The notes below the pieces were generated by a model. The model saw only the letters and a list, made by a program, of their open reading frames with translations. It did no database searches and was not told where the DNA came from. A DNA stretch of 64,000 nucleotides from Bacteroidales bacterium (lineage in GTDB: Bacteria > Bacteroidota > Bacteroidia > Bacteroidales > UBA3663), in NCBI GenBank assembly GCA_045627865.1, contig JAZQOK010000004.1:6663-70662 (forward strand). Reading direction: 5' to 3'. Positions 4,207-62,340 of this stretch are shown piece after piece. A program made the translations under genes and the position numbers. Position 1 is the first letter of the stretch. Each line of letters begins with the position of its first letter.

Positions 4207-7200
4207 TTAGCGGATAAACATAATCTCATTGGCAGAGGCCTTGATAGCGGCCTGACCATCGGCGGCAACCTTGAGGGAGCTGAGTTTCTGGAGCTCGCCA
4301 GACTTGCTTACCTTGTATAGCGTGTGCGAGCCAGGACGGAGCTTCAGGGTAGTCTCGCCCTCCTCGGTAAAATAGAGAAGAGAGGCGTTGTCATTGTTCA
4401 GCAGTTTGGCTACAGGAGCATCGGTAGGACGCATGGTGGCAAGTTCCTTGCGCAGAGAAGTATCCTGAATCTGGACATTACAGCCAGAACCGCCTGCCAT
4501 GAGGATGGCCCAGCCGAGGTCCGGATAGTTCTGCGCATAGAAGGTAACTGCTTTATCCGGATACTGAGAGGTGTACTCGTAAACGCTCTTATAAGCCTCG
4601 GCAAAACCAGTTTTCCCTACTGGTTGCTTTCGGATATGCTGTCGAGGAGCCATGTTGAGACCTCCTAACGGATCCCAGATCTCCTTGGGGTTACGTTTGT
4701 CGGGCTGACGGTAAAACCAGTATTGAATCTGGATGATGTCGATGGCTTTATTAAGCTTAGGATCGGCCAGAAGCGAATCCTGAACATCTTTGGTGCAGGC
4801 AAGGGCAACCTTGACGTCGTTACCGGTTTCAGCCTCCCATTCGGCAACGCATTCGAGCCAGAAACGGGTGAAGTGCAGAGGTCCGGTGTATTCGTTGCTG
4901 ATCAGATGAACGGCATTCGGACAATCGCGGAACTGTTCGAGGTTCTGACGAATGTATTGACGATGCAATTGTCGCATGGTAGGGTTCTGTTCGTCGTAGA
5001 ACCACTCTGCCACAAAGACTCGTTTATCGCCAGTGAAAGGAACCGGTTCGGGGAAGACGGTCTCATTGATGTTATTGACTGGACGCCAAGGCGAATCGAC
5101 CCAATGTGCTCCCGCTTCGAGGATGTTGTGCTGGAAGTAGTGCTCGTAGTAGAGCAGGCGGTCGGGCGCTTTTTGGCAGAACTCGCGCAGACGGTCATAG
5201 TACCATTGATTGGGTTGGGTGAGATCGTAGCGGGACAATCCCTCCCAGGCAGTTCCCTCGCCGCTGCGAGCCCAGGGCATTTCGTAAAATGGGGCCCAGC
5301 ATTCAGCATCACGGCGACGGATGCGTTCGTGGTCATCGCGACGACGGTCGTACCAAAGTCCGTAGCATTGATCGTAAGCCAGTATGCTCTTGTCCTGCAT
5401 ATAGGCGACTACGCTATCTACACGGTCTGTCAAGCCTAGGCCTTCACGATCAGGAACAAAGCGGGTTAAGGCAGGCTGTGCTTTCTTTTCGAGATAGTTT
5501 GGGCGAAGCTTGCCGTTCCACCAAGGGGCATCGTATTTGCCGCCCAGAGCCAATTGATCATTTAGGAGCATCTTTCCATGGGTAATCTCGAACGATGTTT
5601 TAAGATTATTGGCTGCTGAAGCTTTCGTCTTAGGGAACTTGGTCTTGGCAGATTCGTCCTTAGCGAAAAGTTCCTTCGTCTGAATGTCTTGAATCCACTT
5701 TTCAAGCGTCAGCCTTGGTATCTCGCGAGCCTCTTTGGCTGCAGCCATAGCAACCTCGACCGTTGGGCTGGAAGAGGCTTCTGTACTTCGGGGCAGGATA
5801 TAAGGGCTTGGGGCAACTATTGCCGAATTGTTCTCCTTCAATCTGGCTTCGAGTTGTCCGTAATACAAAGAACGTGGCGTTACATGGTTGTTGGTGGATT
5901 TCCAGATGCCGTTACCAACAAACTGACACCAGGTGCCATAGGCGCGGTTCACATTGACCGTGTCAGGACTTGAGCAGAGGATGCGGGCAGCTGTGCAGTT
6001 CCAGAAGATACCATTGGCAGCGGTCCAACCGGCACCATTATTATCCTGATTGATGTTTGCCATTACCAAATCGTGGCCATCAATATCAACAATATCCATC
6101 AGCAGCCCCGTGCTCCAGGCATCGACAGCACCACTATAGCTGAGGGCCTCACGTGCCTCACATTGAACGAAAGCGTTTGGCCCTGCAGCTCCCCAGCCAG
6201 TAGCAAAGGCATGCATGGCGTGGTCGGCCAGACAGCGTTGAACAAGCACTTGCTGTCCCATTACATAGAATGCATTGCGGCGATGGTTGGCCTCCTCGCT
6301 GACTGGGTTCTGGTAGAGGCAGTCCTGAATGGTAATACGTTGGGCGTCTGGCAAAACGATGACACCGCTACCAGCCAACTTCTGAAAGTTCACGTTACGT
6401 ACCCAGCAATCCTCGGCATGATCAATGCTAATGCCCGTCCAGAGGTGCAATTCGTCTTTGGGGTTGCTGCTTTGAATCTCTGCCTCGATGGTAAGTCCCT
6501 CGATGCCTACATGGTGAATGCGTCCATTATGGGCTACCGTTAGAGCATAAGCGTCGTCTGTTCCCCAGAACACTGGAATCGGAGCATCCAGTCCCTTGTC
6601 TGTGACTTTGCGACGGATGCAGACATCAACGTCTCCTGGTTTCCAACCCAAAGCACTGATGCCACCACCATAGATGTCGCATCCCAAATCTTTGATCCAT
6701 TCTTTGGTGCTTGGGTGAACAATCATCACCTCGCTGCCCGCTTTCAGTCCCTCGAAATTTTGGCCTGTAGTCTTGAGCGTATCGGTAGCAAAAGTGGTTT
6801 CCTGACCCTCGATGCAGATGGCTGGTTGGCGATTATTTCCTTGCATGACGAGCCGTGTCTTGTTGGTACCAGCGCCACGTAGTACAACGCCCTCGGCAGC
6901 AATTCGCAAACGGCCCGCGAGTATATAGTCGCCCGCTTCGAGTTGGATCGCACCACGTAATCCATTCTTTAGAGGCAGGGATGCAACCTGATTGATGGCA
7001 TTCTGCAGACGAAGTGTCTGGTCACCTTCTGTAAGTGCAAGATGCAGAACTGTAGGGACGCTTGGAAGTGAGTCTTCCGAAGCCATATATCCACAATAAG
7101 AATAATCAAAAGAAATCTCATCCAGCAAAGAGGCAGCCGAGGCATTGAGAGAGAATAATGCCAACGGGATGAGTGCTAAGTATCTCCACGTATGGTTCAT
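4207..7200 (-). CDS. Large secreted protein with an N-terminal right-handed beta-helix (pectate-lyase-fold-like) region and a C-terminal glycosidase-like domain of unknown family
   Basis: Long ORF. The start is placed at ATG 7200 (MNHTWRYLALIPLALFSLNASAA, a signal peptide) because a TACCTTTG -7 box on the minus strand (7224-7231) lies inside the longer ORF-track version. Function is inferred only from composition and context. Confidence 0.5.
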   Translation of the reverse strand: MNHTWRYLALIPLALFSLNASAASLLDEISFDYSYCGYMASEDSLPSVPTVLHLALTEGDQTLRLQNAINQVASLPLKNGLRGAIQLEAGDYILAGRLRIAAEGVVLRGAGTNKTRLVMQGNNRQPAICIEGQETTFATDTLKTTGQNFEGLKAGSEVMIVHPSTKEWIKDLGCDIYGGGISALGWKPGDVDVCIRRKVTDKGLDAPIPVFWGTDDAYALTVAHNGRIHHVGIEGLTIEAEIQSSNPKDELHLWTGISIDHAEDCWVRNVNFQKLAGSGVIVLPDAQRITIQDCLYQNPVSEEANHRRNAFYVMGQQVLVQRCLADHAMHAFATGWGAAGPNAFVQCEAREALSYSGAVDAWSTGLLMDIVDIDGHDLVMANINQDNNGAGWTAANGIFWNCTAARILCSSPDTVNVNRAYGTWCQFVGNGIWKSTNNHVTPRSLYYGQLEARLKENNSAIVAPSPYILPRSTEASSSPTVEVAMAAAKEAREIPRLTLEKWIQDIQTKELFAKDESAKTKFPKTKASAANNLKTSFEITHGKMLLNDQLALGGKYDAPWWNGKLRPNYLEKKAQPALTRFVPDREGLGLTDRVDSVVAYMQDKSILAYDQCYGLWYDRRRDDHERIRRRDAECWAPFYEMPWARSGEGTAWEGLSRYDLTQPNQWYYDRLREFCQKAPDRLLYYEHYFQHNILEAGAHWVDSPWRPVNNINETVFPEPVPFTGDKRVFVAEWFYDEQNPTMRQLHRQYIRQNLEQFRDCPNAVHLISNEYTGPLHFTRFWLECVAEWEAETGNDVKVALACTKDVQDSLLADPKLNKAIDIIQIQYWFYRQPDKRNPKEIWDPLGGLNMAPRQHIRKQPVGKTGFAEAYKSVYEYTSQYPDKAVTFYAQNYPDLGWAILMAGGSGCNVQIQDTSLRKELATMRPTDAPVAKLLNNDNASLLYFTEEGETTLKLRPGSHTLYKVSKSGELQKLSSLKVAADGQAAIKASANEIMFIR

Positions 7201-8785: not shown

Positions 8786-9988
8786 ATGATGAATATGAAA
8801 AGAAACACATACAATATCCGGAAGCAGGTAGAGCAAATCTCCCTGCTTCTGTTCGTATCTGCCTCGACGCTGTTGGCTGGTTGCCACGGACACGAGCATC
8901 ATGATGATCACGATCATGACCATGAGCACGAAGAACATGAGCATCACAGTGCCAATGGCGTAGAGTTCTCGCACGAGATGAGCGAATCCATTGATTTCGC
9001 AGTCGCTCCTGTAGAGATGCGCCAGATGGGCAACGTAATCCGTAGTGTAGCTAAGGTAATGCCTGCTCAGGGCGATGAAATGATTCTGACCGCCAAGGTG
9101 GATGGTATCGTGCGGTTGAGCAAAAGCGGATTGGCTTTGGGAACCGACCTTCGGGCGGGAGAGGCTATCTGCAGCATCAATGCTTCGGCTACGGCCGATA
9201 ATAATCTCGAGGCACAGCAAGAGCAGGCTAGGGCAGAGTGGCAACGTGCCAAGAGTGAATTGGAACGAATGGAGTCACTTCGTGCCGATCAGTTGGTGCT
9301 TGAAAGTGAATTACAGCGTGCCCGTGCCGACTATGCACAGGCTGAGGCTCAGTACAAGGCACTGCAGAAAGGCTTTGGTCTGGGGTTGCAGAGTGTCGCA
9401 GCTTCGCGTGCCGGGTTTCTGAAGGAGTTGCGTGTGCAGGAGGGTCAGTTTGTTCAGACGGGTGATGTTGTGGCGGTTGTAGCCCAGAACCAGCGTCTGC
9501 AGCTACAGGCGGAAGTTCCTGCTCGTCGTGCCTCGGATCTAAGGAAGACGATAGGTGCAACCCTCCGTCCAATGAATAGTTCCGATATACTCTCTCTTGA
9601 AGATCTGAATGGAAAATTGCTGGCTTATGGACGTCAGTCGGTGGGCAGTAGTTCCTTCCTGACGGTTTCGTTCGAAGTAGATGCCATCGACGACTTGGTG
9701 GTTGGTTCGATGGTAGATCTCTATATACATACGCAGGGCGAAAAAGAGTCGCTTTGTGTGCCAGCTTCCTCTGTGCTCGAGGAGATGGGCAACTATTTCG
9801 TCTATGTACAGGTGGAGCCTGAGTTCTACGAGAAACGTCAGGTGCGTATAGGTGCGACCGATGGTCTTTATACCGAGATCCTCTCTGGACTGGAGATTAA
9901 CCAGAAGGTGGTCAGTCGAGGCGCTGTCCTGGTAAAGTTGCAGCAGGCATCGGGTGGCATTGATCCACATAGCGGACATAATCATTAG
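8786..9988 (+). CDS. Efflux RND periplasmic adaptor (membrane-fusion) lipoprotein with a His/Asp-rich N-terminal metal-binding tract
   Basis: 400 aa with a lipobox LLAGC, followed by HGHEHHDDHDHDHEHEEHEHH. It has coiled-coil and beta-barrel MFP-like architecture and lies directly upstream of the RND pump gene. Confidence 0.8.
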   Translation: MMNMKRNTYNIRKQVEQISLLLFVSASTLLAGCHGHEHHDDHDHDHEHEEHEHHSANGVEFSHEMSESIDFAVAPVEMRQMGNVIRSVAKVMPAQGDEMILTAKVDGIVRLSKSGLALGTDLRAGEAICSINASATADNNLEAQQEQARAEWQRAKSELERMESLRADQLVLESELQRARADYAQAEAQYKALQKGFGLGLQSVAASRAGFLKELRVQEGQFVQTGDVVAVVAQNQRLQLQAEVPARRASDLRKTIGATLRPMNSSDILSLEDLNGKLLAYGRQSVGSSSFLTVSFEVDAIDDLVVGSMVDLYIHTQGEKESLCVPASSVLEEMGNYFVYVQVEPEFYEKRQVRIGATDGLYTEILSGLEINQKVVSRGAVLVKLQQASGGIDPHSGHNH

Positions 9989-10032
9989 ACCCTCTCCGCC
10001 CCTCAAGGGGCACCTCCCCCATAATGGGGAGG
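9988..10032 (+). repeat. GC-rich palindromic element, subtype 1, overlapping the TAG stop of the RND adaptor gene
   Basis: (TA)GACCCTCTCCGCCCCTCAAGGGGCACCTCCCCC-ATAA-TGGGGAGG. Confidence 0.9.
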
Positions 10033-10099
10033 AAAGTTACAACTGGAGGTCAATGGGTATTGATAAATAGAATAAGTACTTTTAATTCTCCTTGCATTC

Positions 10100-20717: not shown

Positions 20718-20817
20718 TAGTTACCTTCTACTTACGGGGATTAATTTTGGTAATTATTAATAATTGTTGTTTGTTTTGTTTTATTGAGAATTTCGACCCA
20801 TGTCTTGTCGCAATACA

Positions 20818-20852
20818 CTCCCTCCCTTCTCAAGGGAGGGTTGGGGTGGGTC
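20818..20852 (-). repeat. GC-rich palindromic element, subtype 2, 4 nt after the lepA stop
   Basis: CTCCCTCCC-TTCTCAA-GGGAGGG-TTGGGGTGGGTC. The reverse complement begins GACCCACCCCAACCCTCCC. Confidence 0.85.
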
Positions 20853-32295: not shown

Positions 32296-32357
32296 ACATT
32301 AATTGTTATTAGCAAGAGAAATTAACCAAATTTGGCAATTTCTTCACTGAATTTCGT

Positions 32358-32389
32358 CCCCTCCCTTTACGGGAGGGTTAGGGTGGGTC
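32358..32389 (-). repeat. GC-rich palindromic element, subtype 2, overlapping the leuS TAG stop
   Basis: CCCCTCCC-TTTAC-GGGAGGG-TTAGGGTGGGTC. On the leuS strand it reads TAGACCCACCCTAACCCTCCC..., with the G of the TAG stop being the first base of the element. Confidence 0.85.
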
Positions 32390-46024: not shown

Positions 46025-47200
46025 TTATTGTTCAACTTTCGGTAGTTGACGGAAGTAAATAAGCGAATCGGTTTCGCCCAAACGGATGTGTCGCATCTCG
46101 GTGAGGATACGTTCGGGGTGGAAGGGGGCGACTTCGAAATAATCGGAACGGGCGGTGTTACAACCATAGACCTGTCCCGTCTGTGCCGCCTTGAACTGGC
46201 CATACAGCGGATTCTGGGCAAGCAGTGAGGCAAGTGTCCAGCTGGCTTCTGTGTCAAAGTATTTGAATACCCACACGTCGGCATCGCTGGCTTGTGCATA
46301 GACCGCTTCGGCTGATAATGCCAACGACCCACCATGCGTATCGTCGGCCCAAGGATACTGGAATCCAGCATCCTGATAGATCCAACTGGCCGAGCTGCGT
46401 CCGCCCGGAACATACCAGGTGGCGCCGTAGGGGAGGTCTGAGAGGATGGACCCCCCGTCCCCCTTTAGGGGGAGATCTGAGCTGTCGTTTTGGGATGCTA
46501 TGTTGTTATATTTTGTTTCGATTTCATTGAATAGCTGGTCGGCTTCGGCCGCTTTGTTGACAAGGCGGCCATAGAAGCGCATCCATTCGGCTCGGCCCAG
46601 GGGAGAGGTCTCCTGATAGTCGGCACAATAGATGATGGGAATCTGGGGTAGGATGGCGGTGATCATGGCTTGCGAGCCGGCATCGTAGGGGGTGACCCAG
46701 ATTGCCTCGCTGTTGGCCGAAAGGATAATCTCTGGGTTAGGTGCCATGCTACCTCCCGCCTCGACAATACGACCCGATTCCAATTGGGCCAGAACCTGCG
46801 GATTGAGGATATACTCGGCATCGCACAATACACCGACACAGTCGAGGGCTTGCAGCTCGGCATAGAGCGAGGCATGGCACGAGGCGGTCAACGTCTGTTG
46901 CCGGAGCGGAGTGTGCAGGGTCTGGATCCGTCCGTATTGCGCTTCGATTTCGTCCAGTTCTTCGTCGCTGAGGGTATCGCCCGGGATGAGCAGATACTGC
47001 ATGGCGATACGTTCGGGTTGCCACGGATTGAGGATGCGGCACAGGGTCATGCCATTGTCCAAGTCCTGCATCTGCAGGAGCGAGGCGTAGCGGGTCGATG
47101 CGCCGGTTTGCTGGAGTGGCTCTTCGGGGGTGCGTTGGTGGCAAGCCGAATTCACTCCGACCACGCAAAGAAGTAACAATCGATAGGCGGTTTTTCTCAT
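46025..47200 (-). CDS. ABC-transporter periplasmic binding lipoprotein (BtuF/FhuD-like, Peripla_BP_2)
   Basis: Start placed at ATG 47200 (MRKTAYRLLLLCVVGVNSAC, a lipobox). The architecture is that of an iron-chelate/B12 binding protein. It contains an in-frame palindromic-element insertion at 46448-46474. Confidence 0.65.
   Translation of the reverse strand: MRKTAYRLLLLCVVGVNSACHQRTPEEPLQQTGASTRYASLLQMQDLDNGMTLCRILNPWQPERIAMQYLLIPGDTLSDEELDEIEAQYGRIQTLHTPLRQQTLTASCHASLYAELQALDCVGVLCDAEYILNPQVLAQLESGRIVEAGGSMAPNPEIILSANSEAIWVTPYDAGSQAMITAILPQIPIIYCADYQETSPLGRAEWMRFYGRLVNKAAEADQLFNEIETKYNNIASQNDSSDLPLKGDGGSILSDLPYGATWYVPGGRSSASWIYQDAGFQYPWADDTHGGSLALSAEAVYAQASDADVWVFKYFDTEASWTLASLLAQNPLYGQFKAAQTGQVYGCNTARSDYFEVAPFHPERILTEMRHIRLGETDSLIYFRQLPKVEQ
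46448..46474 (+). repeat. GC-rich palindromic element, short form, inside a coding sequence
   Basis: GGACCCCCCGTCCCCC-TTTA-GGGGGAG. It is flanked by direct repeats GGAGGTCTGAG (46432-46442) and GGAGATCTGAG (46471-46481), spaced 39 nt apart. Confidence 0.85.
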
Positions 47201-47363
47201 TGTTGTGCGTTGTTTGGGTGCAAAGTTGCTTATTTTTTGTGAGATGACCAAACAAAACGACGTTATTTTTAATTTTATCGTCGGTTTTTAAACCTTTCGA
47301 CGATGCCTTTGTCCTACTCATATTATTATATATAATGGTTATATTTAATTTCTGCTTATTGTA

Positions 47364-50286: not shown

Positions 50287-50294
50287 TATCTTTG
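50287..50294 (+). promoter_or_regulatory. Bacteroidota -7 promoter box (TAnnTTTG) for the trp operon leader
   Basis: TATCTTTG lies 29 nt upstream of the leader-peptide ATG. Confidence 0.55.
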
Positions 50295-50322
50295 CACCCG
50301 AAAAATTAAAAATCAAAACAAA

Positions 50323-50364
50323 ATGACAATAGTAAGCGCATATTGGTGGTGGCGTTGCTCATAA
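50323..50364 (+). CDS. trp operon leader peptide (13 aa, three consecutive Trp codons)
   Basis: ATG ACA ATA GTA AGC GCA TAT TGG TGG TGG CGT TGC TCA TAA translates to MTIVSAYWWWRCS. It lies between the promoter box and an intrinsic terminator, 125 nt upstream of trpB. Confidence 0.75.
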   Translation: MTIVSAYWWWRCS

Positions 50365-50414
50365 CTTAATCGTTGTGGGTTGCAACCCTATGCACTTAAA
50401 GCAATATAGAAAAG

Positions 50415-50449
50415 GGCTTGCGAGACACAGCGTCTTGCGAGCCTTTTTT
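50415..50449 (+). terminator. Intrinsic (attenuator) terminator in the trp leader
   Basis: 12-bp stem GGCTTGCGAGAC / GTCTTGCGAGCC with two G-U pairs and the 5-nt loop ACAGC. It is followed by T6, 40 nt upstream of the trpB ATG. Confidence 0.75.
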
Positions 50450-50488: not shown

Positions 50489-51682
50489 ATGAAAACTTAT
50501 AACGTTGATGAAAACGGCTACTATGGCCAGTTCGGTGGAGCCTACATTCCAGAGATTCTCTACAAGACCGTCGAGGATCTGAAGAAGGCTTATTTGCCAA
50601 TTATTGAGAGCAAGGAGTTCCAGGATGAATATCGTGCCCTTTTGAAGGACTATGTGGGCCGTCCGTCGCCACTCTATTTCGCTAAGCGAATGAGCGAGAA
50701 GTATGGTTGTCAGCTCTACCTGAAACGTGAGGACTTGAACCATACCGGAGCACACAAGATCAATAATGCCATCGGACAGATTCTGATTGCCAAGAAGATG
50801 GGCAAGAAGCGTATCGTGGCTGAGACCGGTGCCGGACAGCATGGTGTGGCTACCGCTACCGTATGTGCGCTGATGGATATTCCTTGTCGTGTCTATATGG
50901 GTGCCACGGATGTGGCTCGTCAGCGTCCGAATGTGGAGCGTATGCGTATGCTGGGTGCTGAGGTTTTCCCTGTCGAGAGCGGCAACAAGACCCTCAAGGA
51001 TGCGACCAATGAGGCTATTCGCGACTGGTGCTGCCATCCAGCCGATACATTCTATATTATTGGTTCGACCGTAGGCCCACACCCTTATCCTGACATGGTG
51101 GCTCGTCTGCAGGCAATCATCAGCGAGGAGATCAAGTGGCAACTCCAGGAGAAGATCGGTCGTGACTATCCGGATTACCTGATGGCTTGTGTGGGCGGTG
51201 GTTCGAATGCTGCCGGTACCATCTACCACTACATCGACGACGAACGTGTGAAACTCGTGCTCGGTGAAGCTGGCGGTATGGGTTATGAGACAGCCGAAAC
51301 AGCCGCTTCGATCACCATCGGTACAGTAGGTATCCTGCACGGTAGCCGCATCAAACTCATGCAAACCGAGGATGGTCAGATCATCGAACCTTATTCCATC
51401 TCTGCCGGTTTGGATTATCCAGGCACAGGTCCAATCCATTGTAATCTGGCTGATCAGGGTCGCGCCAAGGTATTGCCTATCAACGACGATGAGGCGCTTC
51501 GTGCAGCCTTCGAGTTGACCCGCATGGAGGGTATCATCCCAGCACTTGAATCCAGCCATGCTTTGGCCATGTTGCCTAAGATGAAGCATCTCTTCAAGCC
51601 TGAGGATGTAGTCGTACTGACTGTCTCTGGCCGTGGCGACAAGGACCTTGAAACCTACTTGAAGCACAAAGAGACCCTCTAA
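50489..51682 (+). CDS. trpB: Tryptophan synthase beta chain
   Basis: 397 aa. GQFGGAYIPE...LNHTGAHKINNA (PLP-Lys)...GGGSNA. Confidence 0.95.
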   Translation: MKTYNVDENGYYGQFGGAYIPEILYKTVEDLKKAYLPIIESKEFQDEYRALLKDYVGRPSPLYFAKRMSEKYGCQLYLKREDLNHTGAHKINNAIGQILIAKKMGKKRIVAETGAGQHGVATATVCALMDIPCRVYMGATDVARQRPNVERMRMLGAEVFPVESGNKTLKDATNEAIRDWCCHPADTFYIIGSTVGPHPYPDMVARLQAIISEEIKWQLQEKIGRDYPDYLMACVGGGSNAAGTIYHYIDDERVKLVLGEAGGMGYETAETAASITIGTVGILHGSRIKLMQTEDGQIIEPYSISAGLDYPGTGPIHCNLADQGRAKVLPINDDEALRAAFELTRMEGIIPALESSHALAMLPKMKHLFKPEDVVVLTVSGRGDKDLETYLKHKETL

Positions 51683-51700
51683 ATCTCCCTTTAGGGAGAC
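51673..51700 (+). repeat. Degenerate short-form palindromic element spanning the trpB stop
   Basis: GACCCTCTAAA-TCTCCC-TTT-AGGGAGA-C is followed by TTTTT. The GACCCTCT terminus is shared with the family. Confidence 0.5.
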
Positions 51701-51728
51701 TTTTTGGAAGTTACATAAGAACTAAGAA

Positions 51729-53174
51729 ATGACAATGTTCAAATATCATACAGCATCGAAAACGATACTTGGCGATCTTTGTACTCCGGTATCTGTATAT
51801 CTGAAGGTCCGCGATGCCTATCCGCAGTCGGCTCTGATGGAGTCGAGCGATTATCATGGGGGCGAAAATGCCAAGTCCTTCATCGGCTTGCATCCGATTG
51901 CCAGCGTTTCGATCGCACATGGCGTAGGTATTGCCAAGTTCCCCGATGGAACCGAGATCTCGCACCCAATCACCAAGGAATATGGTTCGGCTCAGGTGAT
52001 CAACGACTTCCTGGCTTCGTTCGAGGTATCGGGCGAAAAGAGCAACTACTGCGGTTTGTTCGGCTATACTTCGTTCAACGCAGTACGTTATTTCGAAAAC
52101 ATCAACGTGAAGGATGAGACCCAGTCGGAGAATGATGCACCTGATCTGCTCTATATATTATATAAAGATGTAGTGGTGTTCGACCATTTCCGCAACGAAA
52201 TGATCCTGATCGAGCTCTTGAGCGAGGGCGAGGAGGATGACCTGGATCAGTTGGAACGTGACTGCCAGAGCCGTGCTTATCAGACCTACGATTTCCATCC
52301 GGTGGGTGACTATTGGTCAACTTTGACCGACGACGAACATCGTGCCAACATCCGCAAGGGAATCCAGCATTGTCTGCGTGGTGATGTGTTCCAGATTGTT
52401 CTGTCGCGACGTTTCAAGCAGAAGTACGAGGGCGATGACTTCAAACTCTACCGTGCGTTGCGTAGCATCAACCCAAGTCCATATCTGTTCTACTTTGATT
52501 TCGGCGGCTTCCGTATCTTCGGCTCAAGTCCTGAGACCCATTGCCGTATAGAAAAGACCCCCCTGCCCCCTTTAGGGGGAGAAGGAACCTCCCAGACAAG
52601 ATATACCGCCTACATCGATCCGATTGCGGGTACAACCAAACGTACTGGTAATGCGGAGCAGGACCGACAGAATGCCCTCTATCTGAAGAATGATCCGAAG
52701 GAGAATGCCGAGCATGTGATGCTGGTGGATCTGGCTCGTAATGACCTGAGCCGTAACTGCCATGGTGTGCATGTGGACTTCTACAAGGATATGCAGTTCT
52801 ACAGTCATGTGATTCACTTGGTGAGTCGTGTGAGTGGCGAGTTGGACGAAGGTGCTGATCCAATCAAGGCCTTCATCGATACTTTCCCTGCAGGAACCCT
52901 GAGTGGCGCTCCTAAGGTTCGAGCCATGCAGCTCATTAGCGAATATGAACCACACAACCGTGGCGCTTATGGCGGCTGTATCGGATTCATCGGCTTCGAC
53001 AAGAGCCTCAATCAGGCCATCACGATCCGCACTTTCGTGTCTCGCAACAACGAACTCTGGTTCCAGGCGGGTGGCGGTATCGTTGCCAAGAGCGATGTAG
53101 AATATGAACTTCAGGAGGTGAACAATAAGTTGGGTGCCCTCCGTAAGGCAATCTTAATGGCAGAGAAGCTATAG
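51729..53174 (+). CDS. trpE: Anthranilate synthase component I
   Basis: 481 aa. LVDLARNDLSR, GTLSGAPKVRAMQLI and GGGIVAKSD are present. It contains an in-frame palindromic-element insertion at 52556-52581. Confidence 0.95.
   Translation: MTMFKYHTASKTILGDLCTPVSVYLKVRDAYPQSALMESSDYHGGENAKSFIGLHPIASVSIAHGVGIAKFPDGTEISHPITKEYGSAQVINDFLASFEVSGEKSNYCGLFGYTSFNAVRYFENINVKDETQSENDAPDLLYILYKDVVVFDHFRNEMILIELLSEGEEDDLDQLERDCQSRAYQTYDFHPVGDYWSTLTDDEHRANIRKGIQHCLRGDVFQIVLSRRFKQKYEGDDFKLYRALRSINPSPYLFYFDFGGFRIFGSSPETHCRIEKTPLPPLGGEGTSQTRYTAYIDPIAGTTKRTGNAEQDRQNALYLKNDPKENAEHVMLVDLARNDLSRNCHGVHVDFYKDMQFYSHVIHLVSRVSGELDEGADPIKAFIDTFPAGTLSGAPKVRAMQLISEYEPHNRGAYGGCIGFIGFDKSLNQAITIRTFVSRNNELWFQAGGGIVAKSDVEYELQEVNNKLGALRKAILMAEKL
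52556..52581 (+). repeat. GC-rich palindromic element, short form, inside the trpE coding sequence
   Basis: GACCCCCCTGCCCCC-TTTA-GGGGGAG is translated as (K)TPLPPLGGE. It is almost identical to the copy at 46448-46474. Confidence 0.85.
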
Positions 53175-53223
53175 ACCCTCTCCGCCCCACAAGGGGGCAC
53201 CTCCCCCTTAATGGGGAGGGGAG
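53174..53223 (+). repeat. GC-rich palindromic element, subtype 1, overlapping the trpE TAG stop
   Basis: (TA)GACCCTCTCCGCCCCACAAGGGGGCACCTCCCCC-TTAA-TGGGGAGGGGAG. It is about 90% identical to 9988-10032. Confidence 0.9.
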
Positions 53224-53273
53224 TATGGTTGATGCTGGCAAGAGGGAAATATAGTTGAATTATAAATAAAAAT

Positions 53274-53930
53274 TTGATGAATAATAACGACAATAAAATA
53301 CAAACTATTTCTCCCTCCCCATTAAGGGGGAGGGCTGGGGAGAGGGTCTCAGTCGTCATCATCGACAACTACGATTCGTTTACCTACAACCTCTCGCACC
53401 TGGTCAAGGAGCTTGGTGCCGAAGTGACTGTGTATCGTAACGATCAGTTCCAGATGGAGCAGTTGGAAGCTTTCGACAAGATCATCCTTTCTCCAGGCCC
53501 AGGCATTCCATGTGAGGCAGGATTGTTGCTCGACGTGATTAAGGCATACGCCGGCAAGAAACCAATTCTGGGCGTTTGTCTCGGACATCAGGCCATCGGC
53601 GAGAGCTTCGGCGGCACGTTGACCAACATCGGACAGGTCATGCATGGTGTGGCAACTCCATGTCACATCACTAAAGATGACTATCTCTTCGAGGGTTTGT
53701 CTAAGGATCTTGAGATTGGCCGTTACCACTCGTGGGTAGTTGATCAGCAGAACTTCCCGGATTGCCTGGAGGTAACCTCCGTGTCGGACGAGGGTTACAT
53801 CATGTCGCTCCGTCACAAGGAATACGACATCCGTGGCATCCAGTATCATCCTGAGTCTGTATTGACTCCTGATGGCAAGGCTATATTGAAGAATTGGCTA
53901 TATGGACCCTCCCCCGAACCCCTCCCATAA
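53274..53930 (+). CDS. trpG: Anthranilate synthase component II (glutamine amidotransferase)
   Basis: 218 aa. The core is VVIIDNYDSFTYNL...GVCLGHQAIG...IQYHPES. The first ~25 and last 8 codons are encoded by palindromic-element sequence. Confidence 0.9.
   Translation: MMNNNDNKIQTISPSPLRGRAGERVSVVIIDNYDSFTYNLSHLVKELGAEVTVYRNDQFQMEQLEAFDKIILSPGPGIPCEAGLLLDVIKAYAGKKPILGVCLGHQAIGESFGGTLTNIGQVMHGVATPCHITKDDYLFEGLSKDLEIGRYHSWVVDQQNFPDCLEVTSVSDEGYIMSLRHKEYDIRGIQYHPESVLTPDGKAILKNWLYGPSPEPLP
53311..53348 (-). repeat. GC-rich palindromic element, subtype 1, reverse orientation, inside the trpG 5' coding region
   Basis: CTCCCTCCCC-ATTAA-GGGGGAGGG-CTGGGGAGAGGGTC. It is the inverted partner of 53174-53223. 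Confidence 0.9.
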
Positions 53931-53950
53931 TGGAGGGGAGAGGTTTGAAA
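53905..53950 (+). repeat. GC-rich palindromic element, subtype 2, containing the trpG stop codon
   Basis: GACCCTCCCCCGAACCCCTCCC-ATAATG-GAGGGGAGAGGTTTGAAA. The TAA stop (53928-53930) lies in the hairpin loop. The GAGAGGTTTGAAA tail is shared with 56278-56321. Confidence 0.9.
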
Positions 53951-54022
53951 CGTGTGGTCGAATTCCTAATGGAGCAATCCAATACCTAAATAATTAACAA
54001 TTGACAATTAATAATTAACAAT

Positions 54023-54094
54023 GTTACCAATCCCCCGATAGCAATAGGTAACTGCTCCCTCCCCCTAAAGGGGGTCGGGGGTCCGGGGTGGGTC
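54023..54094 (-). repeat. GC-rich palindromic element, long subtype, ending 3 nt before ATG 54098
   Basis: GTTACCAATCCCCCGATAGCAATAGGTAAC-TGCTCCCTCCCCC-TAAA-GGGGG-TCGGGGGTCCGGGGTGGGTC. It is about 90% identical to 56388-56461. Confidence 0.95.
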
Positions 54095-54097
54095 TTT

Positions 54098-54292
54098 ATG
54101 AAACAATTTTTCTGCAATTTGCTAGCTACAGTAGTTTGCTTTTCTGTTGGCTTTGTGATCATTCACTATTTGTTCGTTTGGTTCGGTTGGAGTCAGTCAG
54201 AACCACTCCTCAATACTTTGGCTTATGGTGCAGGAATGGGTGTGTTATACCAGATTACCATTAGTCTATATTATTTAATCAAGAAAAAATGA
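54098..54292 (+). CDS. Small two-TM membrane protein of unknown function embedded in the trp operon
   Basis: 64 aa: MKQFFCNLLATVVCFSVGFVIIHYLFVWFGWSQSEPLLNTLAYGAGMGVLYQITISLYYLIKKK. Its stop overlaps the trpD start (ATGA at 54289-54292). Confidence 0.5.
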   Translation: MKQFFCNLLATVVCFSVGFVIIHYLFVWFGWSQSEPLLNTLAYGAGMGVLYQITISLYYLIKKK

Positions 54293-55284
54293 AACAATAC
54301 CTTTTGAAACTCATCGCTGGTGAAACCCTCTCACAGGAGGAGACCCACCAGATCATGCTCAACATCGTTCAGGAGCAATACAACGTACAACAGATTGCAG
54401 CTTTGCTGATGGCTCTGCAAACCCGTGGAGCAACCGTCGATGAATTGCTTGGCTTCCGTCAGGGTCTTCTCGAAACGGGTAAATATATTAATGTAGAGGA
54501 TTATAATACACTCGATATTGTCGGTACCGGTGGCGATGGTAAGAATACCTTCAACATCTCGACCTGTTCGGCTTTCGTCATAGCTGGTGCTGGCTACAAA
54601 GTCTCGAAGCATGGCAACGGAGGAGCCACTTCTGTATCGGGTGCATCGAATGTACTGGAGGGTCATGGCGTGAAGTTCACCGACGACGAAAGCAAGTTGC
54701 GTCGTTCGTTGGAGGAGGCTGGTATCTGCTATTTCCATGCTCCTTTGTTCGCCTATGGCATGAAGTTCGTGGGCCCTACCCGTAAGGCTTTGGCTGTGCC
54801 TACTTGCTTCAATCTGCTGGGCCCATTGGTAAACCCTTGTCATCCGAAGAATTCGTTGCACGGTACTGCCAATCAGAGCCAGTTGCGTCTCTATACCAAT
54901 ATTCACCAGAAGATCGGCGATAACTATGGTGTAGTTACCTCTTACGATGGCTACGACGAAATCTCCCTCACCTCGGGCTTCAAGATCTGCACCAATAATT
55001 TCGAAAAGGTGCTCACTCCTGTCGATCTGGGCTTGAAGTATGTCAAGCAGGAGGAGATCTTTGGTGGCAATACTGCAGCCGATGCCATGAAGATCTTCGA
55101 TGCTGTGCTGGATGGTTCAGCTACCGAGGCTCAGAAGAACGTGGTGATTGCTAATGCTGCCTGCGGTATCAGCGTGATGAACATGAACCTCTCGATGGAG
55201 GATTCGGTTGCTGCTGCCCGCGAATCGTTGGAGAGTGGCAAGGCTCTTCAGGTATTCAAGAAGTTCGTTGAGATTAACAGTTAA
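54289..55284 (+). CDS. trpD: Anthranilate phosphoribosyltransferase
   Basis: 331 aa. DIVGTGGDGKNTFNIST...KHGNGGATS. Confidence 0.95.
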   Translation: MKQYLLKLIAGETLSQEETHQIMLNIVQEQYNVQQIAALLMALQTRGATVDELLGFRQGLLETGKYINVEDYNTLDIVGTGGDGKNTFNISTCSAFVIAGAGYKVSKHGNGGATSVSGASNVLEGHGVKFTDDESKLRRSLEEAGICYFHAPLFAYGMKFVGPTRKALAVPTCFNLLGPLVNPCHPKNSLHGTANQSQLRLYTNIHQKIGDNYGVVTSYDGYDEISLTSGFKICTNNFEKVLTPVDLGLKYVKQEEIFGGNTAADAMKIFDAVLDGSATEAQKNVVIANAACGISVMNMNLSMEDSVAAARESLESGKALQVFKKFVEINS

Positions 55285-55295
55285 AAGCCCCACAC

Positions 55296-55324
55296 GACCC
55301 CCTCCCAGCCTCCCCGTGGGGAGG
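55296..55324 (+). repeat. GC-rich palindromic element, subtype 3, 11 nt after the trpD stop
   Basis: GACCCCCTCCCAGCCTCCCC-GT-GGGGAGG. It is identical to the reverse complement of 57144-57172. Confidence 0.9.
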
Positions 55325-55384
55325 AGTGGGTAGATAGAATGGGTGTTCGGTTATTTATATAATAGTTAAACGATAAATCACTTA

Positions 55385-55436
55385 CCCTCCAGTGGTGTCA
55401 AAAAACTCCTCCCCTCGGGGAGGTCGGGAGGGGGTC
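55385..55436 (-). repeat. GC-rich palindromic element, subtype 3, ending 2 nt before the trpC ATG
   Basis: CCCTCCAGTGGTGTCAAAAAACTCCTCCCC-TC-GGGGAGGTCGGGAGGGGGTC. It is about 85% identical to 57121-57172. Confidence 0.9.
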
Positions 55437-55438
55437 CT

Positions 55439-56278
55439 ATGAAAGATATTCTCGAAGAAATAGTAGCCAACAAACGTGAGGAGCTGGCTGTAGCGATCAG
55501 CGATCTGCCGTTGGAGACGTTGAAGAAGTTCACCGAGCAGAAGATCGCTCGCGATGGCGCTCTGAAACTCCGTTCCATGCGACAGAGTCTGGCTCAGTCG
55601 CAGAGCGGTATAATCGCCGAGTTCAAACGCAAGAGCCCAAGCAAGGGCTGGATTCATGCCGATGTTGAACCCGAAGATGTAGTGCCTAAGTATGCCGAAG
55701 GTGGTGCTTCGGCCAGCAGCATCCTGACCGACGAGAAATACTTCGGCGGTAAACTGGAGTTCATTCAGCGAGTACGAGATCTGGCTCCAAATCTGCCTCT
55801 GCTTCGCAAGGAATTTATCATCGACGAATATCAGCTCTACGAGGCTCGTCTGGTTGGTGCTGATGCTGTGCTGCTTATTGCGGCCGATCTGCATCCTGCT
55901 CAATATGGAGAACTCTTGCAAGTGGCACATAGTTTGGGCTTGGAGGTTCTGCTCGAGGTGCATGACTCTGCCGAACTGGAGTATCTGAAGGCTGGTGTGC
56001 CAGACATGTTGGGTGTCAACAACCGTTCGTTGGGTACTTTCCATACCGATGTGCAGCACAGTTTCGATATTGCGATCGAGATGCAACGTGCGGTCAAGGA
56101 GTTGTGTTTGTCGGACGAAGAGGCTCCGCTGTTGGTCAGCGAATCGGGTATCGGCAATCCTTCGGTTGTCAAACTGTTGCGTGAGAAGGGCTTCCGTGGC
56201 TTCCTGATCGGAGAGTGCTTCATGAAGGAGGCTGATCCAGGTCTTGCTCTGAAAGAGTTTATCCAGCAGACCTTATAG
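55439..56278 (+). CDS. trpC: Indole-3-glycerol-phosphate synthase
   Basis: 279 aa. IIAEFKRKSPSKG...LRKEFIIDEYQLYEAR...LLEVH. Confidence 0.95.
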   Translation: MKDILEEIVANKREELAVAISDLPLETLKKFTEQKIARDGALKLRSMRQSLAQSQSGIIAEFKRKSPSKGWIHADVEPEDVVPKYAEGGASASSILTDEKYFGGKLEFIQRVRDLAPNLPLLRKEFIIDEYQLYEARLVGADAVLLIAADLHPAQYGELLQVAHSLGLEVLLEVHDSAELEYLKAGVPDMLGVNNRSLGTFHTDVQHSFDIAIEMQRAVKELCLSDEEAPLLVSESGIGNPSVVKLLREKGFRGFLIGECFMKEADPGLALKEFIQQTL

Positions 56279-56321
56279 ACCCACCCCTAACCCTCCCTCG
56301 TTGGGAGGGAGAGGTTTGAAA
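56278..56321 (+). repeat. GC-rich palindromic element, subtype 2, overlapping the trpC TAG stop
   Basis: (TA)GACCCACCCCTAACCCTCCC-TCGTT-GGGAGGGAGAGGTTTGAAA. Confidence 0.9.
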
Positions 56322-56350
56322 TAATGGGTCAAAATTATTCTCTATACCTT

Positions 56351-56366
56351 GTGGGTGGAGAGGGTC
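56351..56366 (-). repeat. Truncated subtype-1 terminus in reverse orientation
   Basis: GTGGGTGGAGAGGGTC followed by TA. The reverse complement, TAGACCCTCTCCACCCAC, matches the start of the 53174 copy. Confidence 0.7.
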
Positions 56367-56387
56367 TATTTTAGTAAATAATAACTT

Positions 56388-56461
56388 GTTACCAATCCCT
56401 CGATAGCAATAGGTAACTGCTCCCTCCCCCTAAAGGGGGGCGGGGGGTCCGGGGGTGAGTC
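56388..56461 (-). repeat. GC-rich palindromic element, long subtype, ending 2 nt before the trpF ATG
   Basis: GTTACCAATCCCTCGATAGCAATAGGTAAC-TGCTCCCTCCCCC-TAAA-GGGGGG-CGGGGGGTCCGGGGGTGAGTC. Confidence 0.95.
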
Positions 56462-56463
56462 TT

Positions 56464-57105
56464 ATGATTGTAAAAGTTTGCGGCATGACAAGTGCCGATA
56501 ATATAAAAGCTGTGGAGGCTGTATTGGCCGATACACAAGCAACTGAGAAGTGGATGGGTTTCATCTTCTGGGAGCCATCGAAACGTAATTGTGCCACCAA
56601 GCCCGATTATCTGCCCGTGGATTGCAAACGCGTAGGCGTGTTTGTGAATGCAGAGGTCGAGGAGGTTGTGAAACGTGCGGTGGAGTTCGGTTTGACCCAC
56701 ATCCAGTTGCATGGCGACGAGAACCGCCAGTACATCATGGCTTTGCGTCAGGCTCTGGCTGCTGCCAACAACAAATGCGTCATCATCAAGGCGTTGAGTC
56801 TGAAGGTAGCCAACGATGTTGAAAAGTGCGAACCCTACGTCGGCTTTGTCGATTACTTCCTGTTCGATACGCCAACCACAGGCCGTGGCGGTAGCGGTAA
56901 CAGCTTCGACTGGAAACTGCTGGAGGGTTACCGCATGATGACTCCTTTCATTCTGAGCGGTGGCATCGGATTGGATAGTGTCGAATCTCTCAAACAGTTC
57001 AGTCATCCCTGTTGGGAGGGCATCGACCTCAACTCTAAGTTTGAGTCGGCTCCAGGCATCAAGGATGCAAAGAAACTTCGTGAATTTATAGTAAATATCA
57101 ATTAA
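56464..57105 (+). CDS. trpF: Phosphoribosylanthranilate isomerase
   Basis: Start placed at ATG 56464 (MIVKVCGMTS...) rather than the GTG at 56455, which lies inside the repeat. Also ...HIQLHGDE.... Confidence 0.9.
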   Translation: MIVKVCGMTSADNIKAVEAVLADTQATEKWMGFIFWEPSKRNCATKPDYLPVDCKRVGVFVNAEVEEVVKRAVEFGLTHIQLHGDENRQYIMALRQALAAANNKCVIIKALSLKVANDVEKCEPYVGFVDYFLFDTPTTGRGGSGNSFDWKLLEGYRMMTPFILSGGIGLDSVESLKQFSHPCWEGIDLNSKFESAPGIKDAKKLREFIVNIN

Positions 57106-57120
57106 ATATAAAACCATTTG

Positions 57121-57172
57121 CCCTCCAGTGGTGTCATTAAACACCTCCCCACGGGGAGGCTGGGAGGGGGTC
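57121..57172 (-). repeat. GC-rich palindromic element, subtype 3, ending 3 nt before the trpA ATG
   Basis: CCCTCCAGTGGTGTCATTAAACACCTCCCC-AC-GGGGAGGCTGGGAGGGGGTC. Confidence 0.9.
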
Positions 57173-57175
57173 TTT

Positions 57176-57952
57176 ATGAATAGAATCAATCAACTTTTTG
57201 CCAATAAACCACAGAATCTTTTGAGTCTGTATTTCTGTGCCGGAGCTCCTACGCTCGATGGTACAGCCGATGTGATCCGTACGCTCGAGAAGAACGGAAT
57301 CTCGATGATCGAGGTGGGTGTGCCATTCTCAGATCCTATGGCCGATGGTCCTGTGATCCAGGAGGCAGCTACCAAGGCTTTGCGCAACGGTATGTCGTTG
57401 CGTCTGCTGTTCGACCAACTGAAGGATATTCGTCAGGATGTCACCATTCCTCTGATCCTGATGGGTTATCTGAACCCAGTCATGCAGTATGGCTTCGATA
57501 ACTTCTGCAAGAAGTGTAATGAAGTGGGCATCGATGGCGTGATCATTCCAGATCTGCCATTCAAGGACTATATGGAGGAGTATAAGCCTATTGCCGACAA
57601 GTACGATATTCGTATTATCATGCTCATTACTCCAGAGACCAGCGAAGAAAGAATCCGCTTCATCGACCAGAATACCGATGGTTTCATCTACATGGTCTCT
57701 TCTGCCGCCATTACGGGTGCGCAGAAGGAGTTCAACGATGCCAAGCAGGCCTACTTCAACAAGGTACATGCCATGAACCTCCAGCATCCAACCATGATCG
57801 GTTTCGGTATCTCCAACAAACAGACCCTTGAGTCGGCTCAGGCTAATGCCAATGGTGCCATCATCGGTTCGAAGTTCGTGCAGTTGCTGGATGCTGCCAA
57901 TGGCGATGCACAAGTCGCTATCGACCAGCTTTATGATGCATTAAAGCAATAA
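57176..57952 (+). CDS. trpA: Tryptophan synthase alpha chain
   Basis: Start placed at ATG 57176 (MNRINQLFANK...) rather than the GTG at 57128, which lies inside the repeat. Also EVGVPFSDPMADGPVIQ. Confidence 0.95.
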   Translation: MNRINQLFANKPQNLLSLYFCAGAPTLDGTADVIRTLEKNGISMIEVGVPFSDPMADGPVIQEAATKALRNGMSLRLLFDQLKDIRQDVTIPLILMGYLNPVMQYGFDNFCKKCNEVGIDGVIIPDLPFKDYMEEYKPIADKYDIRIIMLITPETSEERIRFIDQNTDGFIYMVSSAAITGAQKEFNDAKQAYFNKVHAMNLQHPTMIGFGISNKQTLESAQANANGAIIGSKFVQLLDAANGDAQVAIDQLYDALKQ

Positions 57953-62288: not shown

Positions 62289-62316
62289 TTCTTAATACCA
62301 TCCTCCCCTATGAATT

Positions 62317-62340
62317 CCCCCTAAAGGGGGTTAGGGGGTC
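62317..62340 (-). repeat. GC-rich palindromic element, short form, ending 5 nt before the symporter ATG
   Basis: CCCCC-TAAA-GGGGG-TTAGGGGGTC. The reverse complement is GACCCCCTAACCCCCTTTAGGGGG. Confidence 0.85.

Follow-up and report, generated by a model that had tools for sequence, protein, structure and literature searches.

A 64,000-nt stretch of contig JAZQOK010000004.1 from a member of the Bacteroidales (assembly GCA_045627865.1), referred to here as the window, contains a tryptophan biosynthesis (trp) operon whose gene junctions are crowded with short C-rich palindromes. These repeats are probably solo arms and inverted pairs, devoid of any open reading frame (ORF), of a palindromic mobile family specific to one lineage of Prevotellaceae from the herbivore gut. 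The pairs resemble MITEs (miniature inverted-repeat transposable elements) or REPINs, and the full-length form of the family would be a cassette encoding a DUF559 protein.

The repeat unit consists of (TA)GACCCnCCCC followed, after 2–3 nt, by a C-rich/G-rich hairpin, for instance CCCTCCC-loop-GGGAGGG. Because 14 short copies aligned too poorly in MAFFT to support a covariance model, copies were located with regular expressions and a mechanical scan of the window for perfect C/T-pure hairpins (stem of at least 6 bp, loop of 2–7 nt). The scan returned 17 hairpins, compared with a mean of 0.45 and a maximum of 2 in 40 dinucleotide-preserving simulations of the window. Eleven of them fall inside 51673–57178 and six outside, at 560 (a doubtful copy), 10013, 20820, 32359, 46458 and 62317. 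With one further copy that consists of an arm only (56353–56369), the operon total comes to 12 copies in 5.5 kb; both this figure and the six copies in the other ~58 kb agree with the original prediction. The outside rate of 0.10 per kb leads one to expect 0.56 copies in the operon, against 11 observed (Poisson P = 3e-11 for at least 11 copies and 2e-6 for at least 7 independent events).

The gene order trpB-trpE-trpG-(orfX)-trpD-trpC-trpF-trpA, where orfX is a small ORF, is confirmed by NCBIfam, and six of the seven junctions are occupied. Elsewhere in the window, copies occupy about four of 30 co-directional junctions, and no fewer than 11 tight junctions are free of them. The sites are those first listed: trpB/trpE, the interior of trpE, inverted pairs at trpE/trpG, trpG/orfX, trpD/trpC and trpC/trpF (the last with the extra arm), and a single copy at trpF/trpA. 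As had also been noted, only orfX/trpD, where the genes overlap at ATGA, is free. The four pairs span 143–190 nt, with terminal inverted repeats around AT-rich spacers.

Orientation of the copies tracks the gene rather than the chromosome strand, since reversed copies follow the minus-strand genes lepA and leuS; cumulative GC skew climbs monotonically across the window. Forward copies trail genes, and their GACCC overlaps the TAG stops of trpE, trpC, leuS and an HlyD-family gene. The GGGTC end of reversed copies lies 2–5 nt upstream of the ATG of orfX, trpC, trpF, trpA and an SSF symporter gene. Coordinates of the copies, including those at five non-trp sites of the window, are collected in Table 1. 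One of the latter (62313–62340) is identical in 26/26 positions to the left terminal repeat of DUF559 cassettes in two loci, L211 and L219 (other loci are likewise cited by L numbers).

Copies are numerous in gut metagenomes. Metagenome contigs were scanned for the subfamily CCCCCTAAAGGGGG-N2–3-GGGGGTC, of which the window holds five copies, and at least 120 stretches were found to carry it, all of them from rumen or hindgut among the matches listed; none of those listed lies in a trp operon. For 113 distinct copies with adequate flanks, again among the matches listed, placement was compared with random positions in the same loci. In 36 of the 113 copies (32%), the GACCC end follows the stop of an ORF with 80 aa or more by no more than 15 nt (mostly -2 to +2), compared with 1.9% of random positions. 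A stop codon on the hairpin side was found for 0/113 copies (1.7% at random), which gives an orientation bias of 36:0. Copies are depleted inside genes, with 19% located there versus 59% of random positions. Tandem arrays and inverted pairs are common in these loci, and no 5.5-kb stretch in the 660 kb of listed loci has more than 6 hairpins, as against the 11 of the window operon. The dense metagenome clusters (L133, L089, L122 and L170) are not biosynthetic operons; in L122, four hairpins lie within an HtpG-like ORF (3814–5907). Head-to-tail arrays, for example four copies of a 24-nt core with a period of ~42 nt in L139 (6303–6454) and others in L084, L088, L090 and L113, often adjoin AT-rich 7–8-mer repeats such as CATTTACCATTTACC.

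Orthologous operons contain both filled and empty versions of the same junctions. TrpD relatives assign the window to an uncultured lineage of Prevotellaceae from the gut of horses and ruminants. Among GTDB representatives, the closest is L001 (metagenome-assembled genome (MAG) JAZRXX01), which has 99% amino-acid identity in TrpD and a nucleotide identity of 83–94% that varies gene by gene. In a TrpC/F/A tree, the window forms a clade with L001, L203–208, and L201 + L202. A comparison of 461 trp junctions across 80 species showed that 37% are no longer than 10 nt and 20% exceed 60 nt. Empty sites are typically ATGA stop/start overlaps (TTATGA at trpE/trpG, AAATGA at trpG/trpD and TCATGA at trpD/trpC). 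The C-rich family is nearly confined to the clade of the window, and most Prevotellaceae among the 80 species lack it.

Within the closest clade, every junction is polymorphic: empty, filled, or filled by another subfamily. The trpB/trpE junction is filled in the window and empty in L001, and trpE/trpG is filled in the window, L001 and L010 and empty in L201 and L203. At trpG/trpD, the window has a 385-nt block with orfX (53898–54282) that is missing from L001; L001 and L203 are empty and L201 has a single type-a right module. The trpD/trpC junction is filled in the window, holds non-homologous members in L001 and L203, and in L201/L202 has only AGACCCC(C)G. At trpC/trpF, filled in the window, L202 is empty and the left side in L001 is taken by a non-homologous member. 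Finally, trpF/trpA has a type-a module in the window, L202 and L203 and a type-b module in L001 and L201. The premise of the original prediction, that of a mobile or repetitive family, is thus borne out by the empty sites, the polymorphic occupancy and the copies elsewhere; aligning related operons did reveal empty sites, and the spacers are not identical in all relatives.

Target sites were compared in seven filled/empty pairs. No fixed target motif was consistent among them; TATAG or TA often, though not always, precedes GACCC. In L201 (3092–3101) and L202 (270–280), the AGACCCC(C)G spacer between the TAA stop and ATG of trpD/trpC resembles a piece of an arm, left perhaps by excision or serving as a seed. 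In other species, unrelated palindromes fill the same trp junctions, often with tandem 7–8-mers that copy the local gene end. Such tandem-arm junctions are seen in L016/L012/L015, L028, L006, L010, L021 and L046 (for example, AACTCCTAA giving rise to CTCCTAACTCCTCA repeats, or AATTCAT repeats), and the copied gene ends point, tentatively, to local duplication or template switching in those species and not to transposition.

The individual copies of the operon are diverse. The trpB/trpE copy, described at first as degenerate, belongs instead to a genuine subfamily (GACCCTCTAAATCTCCCT...AGGGAGAC) that is also present at trpD/trpC in L203 and L205. Its site is empty in L001, L006, L010, L014, L016 and L030, where trpB and trpE overlap. 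The in-frame insert of trpE is missing from L002, L013, L016, L021 and L044. It occupies a loop between HCRIEG and xxAYIDPIAGT (window 52546–52611) in which at least eight other lineages carry differing palindromic or tandem inserts and many more carry none. This TrpE loop is a hypervariable insertion site across the Prevotellaceae, with examples in L006, L010, L014, L022, L027 and L030.

At trpE/trpG, the left arm is 94% identical to window 9986–10032 and 100% identical to L001 6261–6321. The start codon of trpG sits within this pair, in the AT-rich spacer, and a 24-residue extension (MNNNDNKIQTISPSPLRGRAGERVS) precedes the conserved VVIIDNY; the start codon of the ancestral trpE/trpG overlap (TTATGAAGGTAGTC) has been lost in the window. 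An element-borne TrpG start of this design is found in L001 and L010 as well. At its other end, TrpG reads into the next left module (…NWLYGPSPEPLP and stop), with the stop codon within the hairpin loop. The type-b right module that follows ends 3 nt before the orfX ATG and is 93% identical to 56387–56453. The type-a right module at trpF/trpA is 79% identical over 81 nt to 55356–55436. Paralogous modules within the operon are 93–97% identical and trp copies are most closely related to one another, with type-a right modules confined to trp operons within the 1.92 Mb of sequence examined. No copies were found in about 21 kb of flanks of the L001, L201 and L202 operons.

A longer form with the same ends encodes a protein. 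At three loci selected for the element, a 126-aa ORF lies between a forward and a reversed copy and is assigned to DUF559 (PF04480, 102.8 bits), a very widespread domain of unknown function. Its nearest solved structures are 3hrl, an "endonuclease-like protein" (E = 6e-16), and, weakly, 3r3p (E = 0.004), an I-Bth0305I-type Vsr-like homing endonuclease domain titled "mobile intron protein". Because loci selected by the element carry an ascertainment bias, five further DUF559 clusters were found by protein similarity alone (55–80% identity). All six DUF559 clusters examined are bounded by inverted C-rich hairpin arms. Cassettes occupy five unrelated co-directional junctions, leuA/leuC, nhaC/rsmG, argG/argC, ddl/acyltransferase and korA/korB, the first of them in at least four lineages with DUF559 protein identities of 70–100%. 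Most DUF559 homologues are on contigs of ~1 kb, as would be expected if repeated flanks interrupt assembly.

The arms differ in sequence between DUF559 protein lineages and co-vary with them. The group at 70% identity or more has GACCCCC-TAA-CCCCCTTTAGGGGG, the cluster at 57% identity has GCCTAACCCC-GA-CCCTTCCCAAAGGGAAGGG, and that at 55% has GCCCCCTCC-TAA-CCTCCCCCAAGGGGGAGG. In every cassette, the stop of the upstream gene lies at the left arm or just past it, and gene calls start the downstream gene at an ATG that overlaps, or follows by 1–6 nt, the DUF559 stop, from which the gene stays in frame through the right arm. Read-through is seen in LeuC (MSESKCNNKFSSKEVLPLKGAGGS-LFDKIWD), RsmG (...NLPLKGDGGS-VITKYF), ArgC (...STPIPLGGVGGR-LRVGILGA) and KorB (...NPSPLGGSRWGA-ADFKKGQPRWCPGCGD); element ATGs serve as the called starts of TrpG, LeuC, RsmG, ArgC, KorB and an acyltransferase. 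The repeats lengthen proteins at the N or C terminus and add in-frame inserts, all of which gene callers and MAG annotators would misplace. The arms stand at fixed short distances from the ORF, and the five junctions share homologous 3' trailers and restart codons. The trpE/trpG pair has exactly the same design minus the ORF, with a TAG at the left arm, the ancestral ATG lost and a new ATG in the spacer.

From these observations, a history of the operon can be proposed. The full-length element would be a cassette of ~0.5 kb encoding a Vsr-like PD-(D/E)xK endonuclease of ~125 aa, and position and co-variation suggest that this protein is the mobilizing enzyme. The left arm would supply a stop for the upstream gene, the restart ATG at the DUF559 stop would open the downstream gene, and translation would run on in frame through the right arm, read as a Pro/Gly-rich linker, into the host gene downstream. 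Since it carries its own stop and restart, such a cassette might be tolerated in tight or overlapping operon junctions at low cost. The ancestral trp operon, a presumed run of six or seven adjacent overlap-type junctions, would have offered many such sites. It appears to have been colonized repeatedly in this clade, because non-homologous members sit at one junction in sister genomes. Copies may then have spread, been converted or been exchanged locally within the operon, given that type-a modules are restricted to trp, paralogues are so similar and the flanks lack copies; most would have lost the ORF or never had it, and the trp pairs may derive from DUF559 cassettes in this way. In the transcript, the pairs are predicted to form very stable intercistronic hairpins that would bring the stop of one gene and the start of the next to the base of one stem, a geometry that could, speculatively, preserve translational coupling.

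Of the explanations for the trp excess that were put forward originally, two gain indirect support. A local hotspot is favored by the non-homologous members at the same junctions in the window, L001, L201 and L203, by the kinship of trp copies with one another and by the copy-free flanks. Tolerance is favored in that the element itself appears built to keep both neighbors expressed, through the stop at the left arm and the restart ATG read through the right arm; it is this design, and not upstream attenuation, that would account for the tolerance.

Several points weigh against the proposed history. No DUF559 gene was found in the window or at any trp locus, and any mobilizing activity would therefore need to come in trans from another part of the genome. 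Residual DUF559 sequence was not detectable in the trp spacers, which have no homology to cassette interiors beyond the arms and the design of an ATG plus an N/K-rich leader plus an arm. The only arm type common to the cassettes and some of the trp copies is the TTTA-loop one, and among the cassettes seen so far the other trp subfamilies have no matched nuclease. Neither transposase nor homing activity of DUF559 has been demonstrated in the literature searched. The seven filled/empty comparisons gave no consistent target-site duplication or clean insertion footprint, a test hampered by divergence of the flanks since insertion. The estimate of the trp excess is based on 64 kb and about 20 kb of relatives' flanks, and not on whole genomes. 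Lastly, function, as opposed to selfish maintenance, could explain why some modules are highly identical in genomes that have diverged.

Function is the core of the first alternative, in which the repeats are selected regulatory modules whose hairpins tune trp expression through protection from 3' exonucleases, processing sites, partial termination after trpB, or the translation rates of trpC, trpF and trpA. This we regard as unlikely, though it accounts for several facts: the 36:0 orientation bias and placement at stop codons, right modules that end 2–5 nt before five different ATGs, type-a modules found only in trp operons of the sequence examined, and a trpF/trpA junction occupied in 5/5 clade members. 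A further fact is the right module of trpC/trpF, in which 81/82 positions are identical between the window and L001 compared with 66% at four-fold degenerate sites and ~88% in flanking coding sequence. Conservation of this kind is explicable by gene conversion among copies or by a recombination tract, such as the one of ~95% identity between the window and L001 in which the trpE/trpG left arm lies. Against selected regulation stand the empty ATGA junctions of close relatives at trpE/trpG, trpG/trpD, trpD/trpC and trpC/trpF, the interchangeable subfamilies that sister genomes carry at one junction, and the lack of the family in most of the Prevotellaceae compared.

Folding of the junctions bears on the same question. 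As RNA, the trpE/trpG pair folds arm-to-arm at -87.1 kcal/mol (z about -7.5) and the trpD/trpC pair at -81.3 kcal/mol (z -7.6), whereas the two type-b pairs fold less exceptionally (z -2.5 to -2.8). Besides the leader terminator, only the trpB/trpE copy among the operon hairpins has a T run on the sense strand (51684–51699 followed by CTTTTT). This copy looks like a terminator in sense orientation, in keeping with partial termination. Intrinsic termination was rejected for the other ten hairpins, which have no T run on the + strand; of the five junction structures on the sense strand, four are without a U tract. Rfam gave no matches at gathering score in the window, and an E-value scan yielded only spurious microRNA-hairpin matches.

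A translational route to regulation may involve a G-rich, Shine–Dalgarno (SD)-like arm before the ATG, or a stem that joins the stop and start codons. In the right arms, a GGAGG stands 7–8 nt ahead of the ATGs of trpC and trpA (55426–55441 and 57162–57178), an SD-like arrangement that fits the regulatory explanation. Such a motif before an ATG is unusual in Bacteroidota, a phylum that rarely uses SD-led initiation. The hairpin loop just upstream of the right-arm GGAGG carries ACCCUCC, which is anti-SD-like. Given the orientation bias, the trpC/trpF identity and these GGAGG motifs, the trp hairpins may have a selected RNA-level role, in mRNA stability or internal attenuation as first suggested, though this is the less likely reading.

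The second alternative accepts mobile repeats and makes DUF559 a passenger, with the repeats moved by some other enzyme (a RAYT-like protein or a DDE transposase) or by recombination or template switching at hairpins, and DUF559 landing in the AT-rich spacers of existing pairs. It would explain why most copies, whether solo arms, pairs or tandem arrays such as that of L139, have no ORF, why no DUF559 gene lies near trp, and why the protein resembles the nucleases 3hrl and 3r3p rather than known transposases. Such an origin is nonetheless quite improbable, since DUF559 has both arms at fixed short distances with homologous trailers and restarts in 6/6 clusters, and the arms shift in sequence with the DUF559 lineage. 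A tblastn search with an IS200 TnpA query found no IS200/RAYT-like match in 1.8 Mb, which is a weak test. A third alternative, that of operon-specific conserved spacers or ordinary intrinsic terminators, draws on the spacers common to the window and L001 (trpE/trpG, the right side of trpC/trpF and the in-trpE copy) and is refuted by the copies present at five non-trp window sites and on 120 or more unrelated stretches of metagenome, by the junctions that are empty in relatives, which together with polymorphic occupancy mean that these are not fixed spacers, and by a T run on only one sense-strand copy.

Returning to the mobile family with a DUF559 cassette as its full-length form, a bolder version of the proposal can be put forward tentatively. 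The Bacteroidota may possess an undescribed class of selfish element, in which a Vsr-like DUF559 nuclease co-evolves with C-rich hairpin arms and which specializes in operon junctions by bringing its own stop, restart and translatable arms. Derivatives without the ORF would be able to saturate an operon, and their giant hairpins were possibly co-opted to bridge cistrons that were once coupled by ATGA. If so, the element would exemplify how mobile DNA invades translationally coupled operons without polar damage, by means of a stop, a restart and in-frame arms. The filled and empty trp junctions would likewise provide a natural series for the effects of intercistronic hairpins on mRNA stability and translation in Bacteroidota.

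The remaining features of the operon are peripheral to the repeats. The leader (50287–50449) is a classic attenuator context, separate from the repeat family; it is identical to L001 at 177/180 positions and scores 30.1 bits against Rfam Bacteroid-trp, below the gathering score of 49. The orfX gene, which lies inside the trpG/trpD insertion, has no homologue among 80 orthologous loci and matches DUF6404 only weakly (24 bits, below cut-off). Its end is the ancestral ATGA overlap of trpG stop and trpD start, and its first 10 nt are identical to the start of trpD (ATGAAACAAT), which suggests a second insertion or duplication of ~190 nt. In several other species, unrelated small hydrophobic ORFs are found between trpG and trpD, such as one of 60 aa in L010 (6772–7009); loci with such ORFs have gaps of 160–577 nt. 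Exact-protein look-ups with TrpD, orfX and TrpA of the window matched no contig, and comparisons of alleles were made with nearest relatives at about 85–94% nucleotide identity. The operon is also a mosaic: identity to L001 steps between 83% and 94%, with changes near junctions, and L010 is close in trpB–trpD (89–90% amino-acid identity) and distant in trpC (72%) and trpF (49%). To judge from where these steps fall, the repeats may act as recombination joints.

Table 1. Genes, leader features and repeat copies of the window, in order of position within each group
Feature	Position	Strand	Remarks
trp leader	50287–50449	+	Bacteroidetes-type promoter box TATCTTTG, 13-codon peptide, terminator
Leader peptide MTIVSAYWWWRCS	50323–50364	+	13 codons, three consecutive Trp codons
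Leader terminator hairpin	50409–50449	+	strong; T run on sense strand
trpB	50489–51682	+	NCBIfam
trpE	51729–53174	+	NCBIfam
trpG	53277–53930	+	NCBIfam; TrpG domain begins at residue 25–26
orfX	54098–54292	+	64-aa hydrophobic ORF; no NCBIfam assignment
trpD	54289–55284	+	NCBIfam
trpC	55439–56278	+	NCBIfam
trpF	56464–57105	+	NCBIfam
trpA	57176–57952	+	NCBIfam
trpB/trpE copy, GACCCTC-TAA-ATCTCCCT-TT-AGGGAGA, then CTTTTT	51673–51699	+	trpB stop 51680–51682 inside element
In-frame trpE copy GACCCCCCTGCCCCCTTTAGGGGGAG	52556–52581	+	codes for part of insert KTPLPPLGGEGTSQTRY
trpE/trpG left arm, long two-hairpin form	53174–53224	+	trpE stop TAG 53172–53174 overlaps GACCC
New trpG start and right arm	53277–53348	+	ATG at 53277; reversed right arm 53311–53348 read through
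trpG-end left module	53905–53950	+	tail AGAGGTTTGAAA conserved; 76% identical to 56284–56321
trpG/orfX right module, type b	54022–54094	-	GTTACC..GGTAAC hairpin, C-rich hairpin, G-rich arms ending GGGTC
trpD/trpC left arm, type a, GACCCCCTCCCAGCCTCCCCGTGGGGAGGAGT	55296–55327	+	97% complementary to 57141–57172
trpD/trpC right module, type a	55378–55436	-	CACT..TACCCTCCAGTG hairpin, C-rich hairpin, GGGAGGGGGTC; 2 nt before trpC ATG
trpC-end left module	56278–56322	+	trpC stop TAG 56276–56278 overlaps GACCC
Arm-only copy GGGTGGAGAGGGTCTAT	56353–56369	-	94% complementary to 53171–53187; missing from L001
trpC/trpF right module, type b	56387–56461	-	ends 2 nt before trpF ATG
trpF/trpA right module, type a	57113–57172	-	no left partner; 3 nt before trpA ATG
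Non-trp copy, long form	9988–10037	+	overlaps HlyD-family gene stop, before AcrB-family gene
Non-trp copy	20815–20852	-	4 nt past stop of lepA (minus strand)
Non-trp copy	32355–32389	-	overlaps stop of leuS (TAGACCC; minus strand)
Copy within Peripla_BP_2 ORF	46448–46475	+	ORF 46025–47251 on minus strand stays open
Non-trp reversed copy	62313–62340	-	5 nt before SSF symporter ATG

The family can be set beside several known systems. Ogata et al. (2000, cited in PMC3184786) are said to have described Rickettsia palindromic elements that are inserted in frame into protein genes at tolerated surface sites. Similar in-frame copies are seen here in the TrpE loop, the Peripla_BP_2 ORF and the HtpG-like ORF of L122; the Rickettsia elements differ in sequence, size and phylum, and are not known to be concentrated at operon junctions. 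Free-standing genes for Vsr-like/EDxHD homing endonucleases, such as I-Bth0305I (PDB 3r3p), offer a second parallel. These are small selfish nuclease genes of the fold that DUF559 resembles, located between conserved genes, much as leuA/leuC is occupied in several species, although the similarity is weak (E = 0.004). Unlike the cassettes, homing genes normally lack flanking hairpin inverted repeats and are not known to leave hundreds of copies devoid of an ORF.

Literature searches on REP or MITE elements of Prevotella/Bacteroidetes and on DUF559 returned only PINSR and general surveys. PINSR, a 188-bp repeat of Prevotella intermedia/nigrescens (PMC4755523), is likewise lineage-restricted, intergenic and present in high copy number in Prevotella. 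It differs in size and sequence, lacks terminal inverted repeats, and has no reported placement at operon junctions or stop codons. MITEs, among them the Correia elements of Neisseria (PMC3184786), are similar in architecture, as they too have pairs of 140–190 nt with terminal inverted repeats around AT-rich interiors, lie near gene starts or ends, and form long RNA hairpins. Four of the trp elements are short, non-coding and bounded by terminal inverted repeats in the manner of a MITE. They appear to fall outside the strict definition, since no duplication of TA or another target was seen at flanks that have diverged since insertion, and the longer form with the same ends encodes DUF559 and not a DDE or other known transposase. 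The arms, in addition, are themselves hairpins and occur solo.

Mycobacterial interspersed repetitive units (MIRUs) insert at start codons and couple their own ORF to a neighbor (PMC12548453, PMC3184786). They share with the present family an intercistronic location in polycistronic operons, the existence of filled and empty sites, and element ORFs that join the stops and starts of neighbors with little effect on expression. The trp copies join reading frames in the same way, as seen in the stops that overlap GACCC and in the TrpG that ends in an arm. MIRUs, in contrast, are direct-repeat units of 40–100 bp, of apparently unrelated sequence and from another phylum, with neither a C-rich hairpin-plus-arm nor a known nuclease gene.

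In the REP/REPIN–RAYT system, a lone enzyme gene lies between hairpin repeats (repetitive extragenic palindromes, or REPs) and their inverted doublets, with which it co-evolves (PMC3116915, PMC3337134). The resemblance is extensive: short GC-rich imperfect palindromes occur singly, in clusters and as inverted doublets with long hairpins, chiefly outside genes and at their ends, with a small protein gene between two inverted repeats and co-variation of repeat and protein. The trp repeats are dispersed palindromes of the required length (20–40 nt), and their doublets, like many metagenome pairs, form long hairpins. REPs have a conserved GTAG or CGTC terminal tag (PMC3733652), whereas the trp elements end in (T/A)(A/G)GACCC. 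As the tag differs and the flanked gene encodes a Vsr-like PD-(D/E)xK nuclease rather than a Y1/HUH transposase, the family does not belong to the REPs. It differs further in that the cassette sits in operons with a stop and a restart, 19% of copies are in frame inside genes, and the host belongs to the Bacteroidota. Should the proposal be correct, DUF559 would gain a testable role as the partner of a palindromic repeat, in parallel to RAYT and REP with another nuclease fold. In its mode of working, the family appears closest to MIRUs and to REP/REPIN–RAYT, and unrelated to PINSR.

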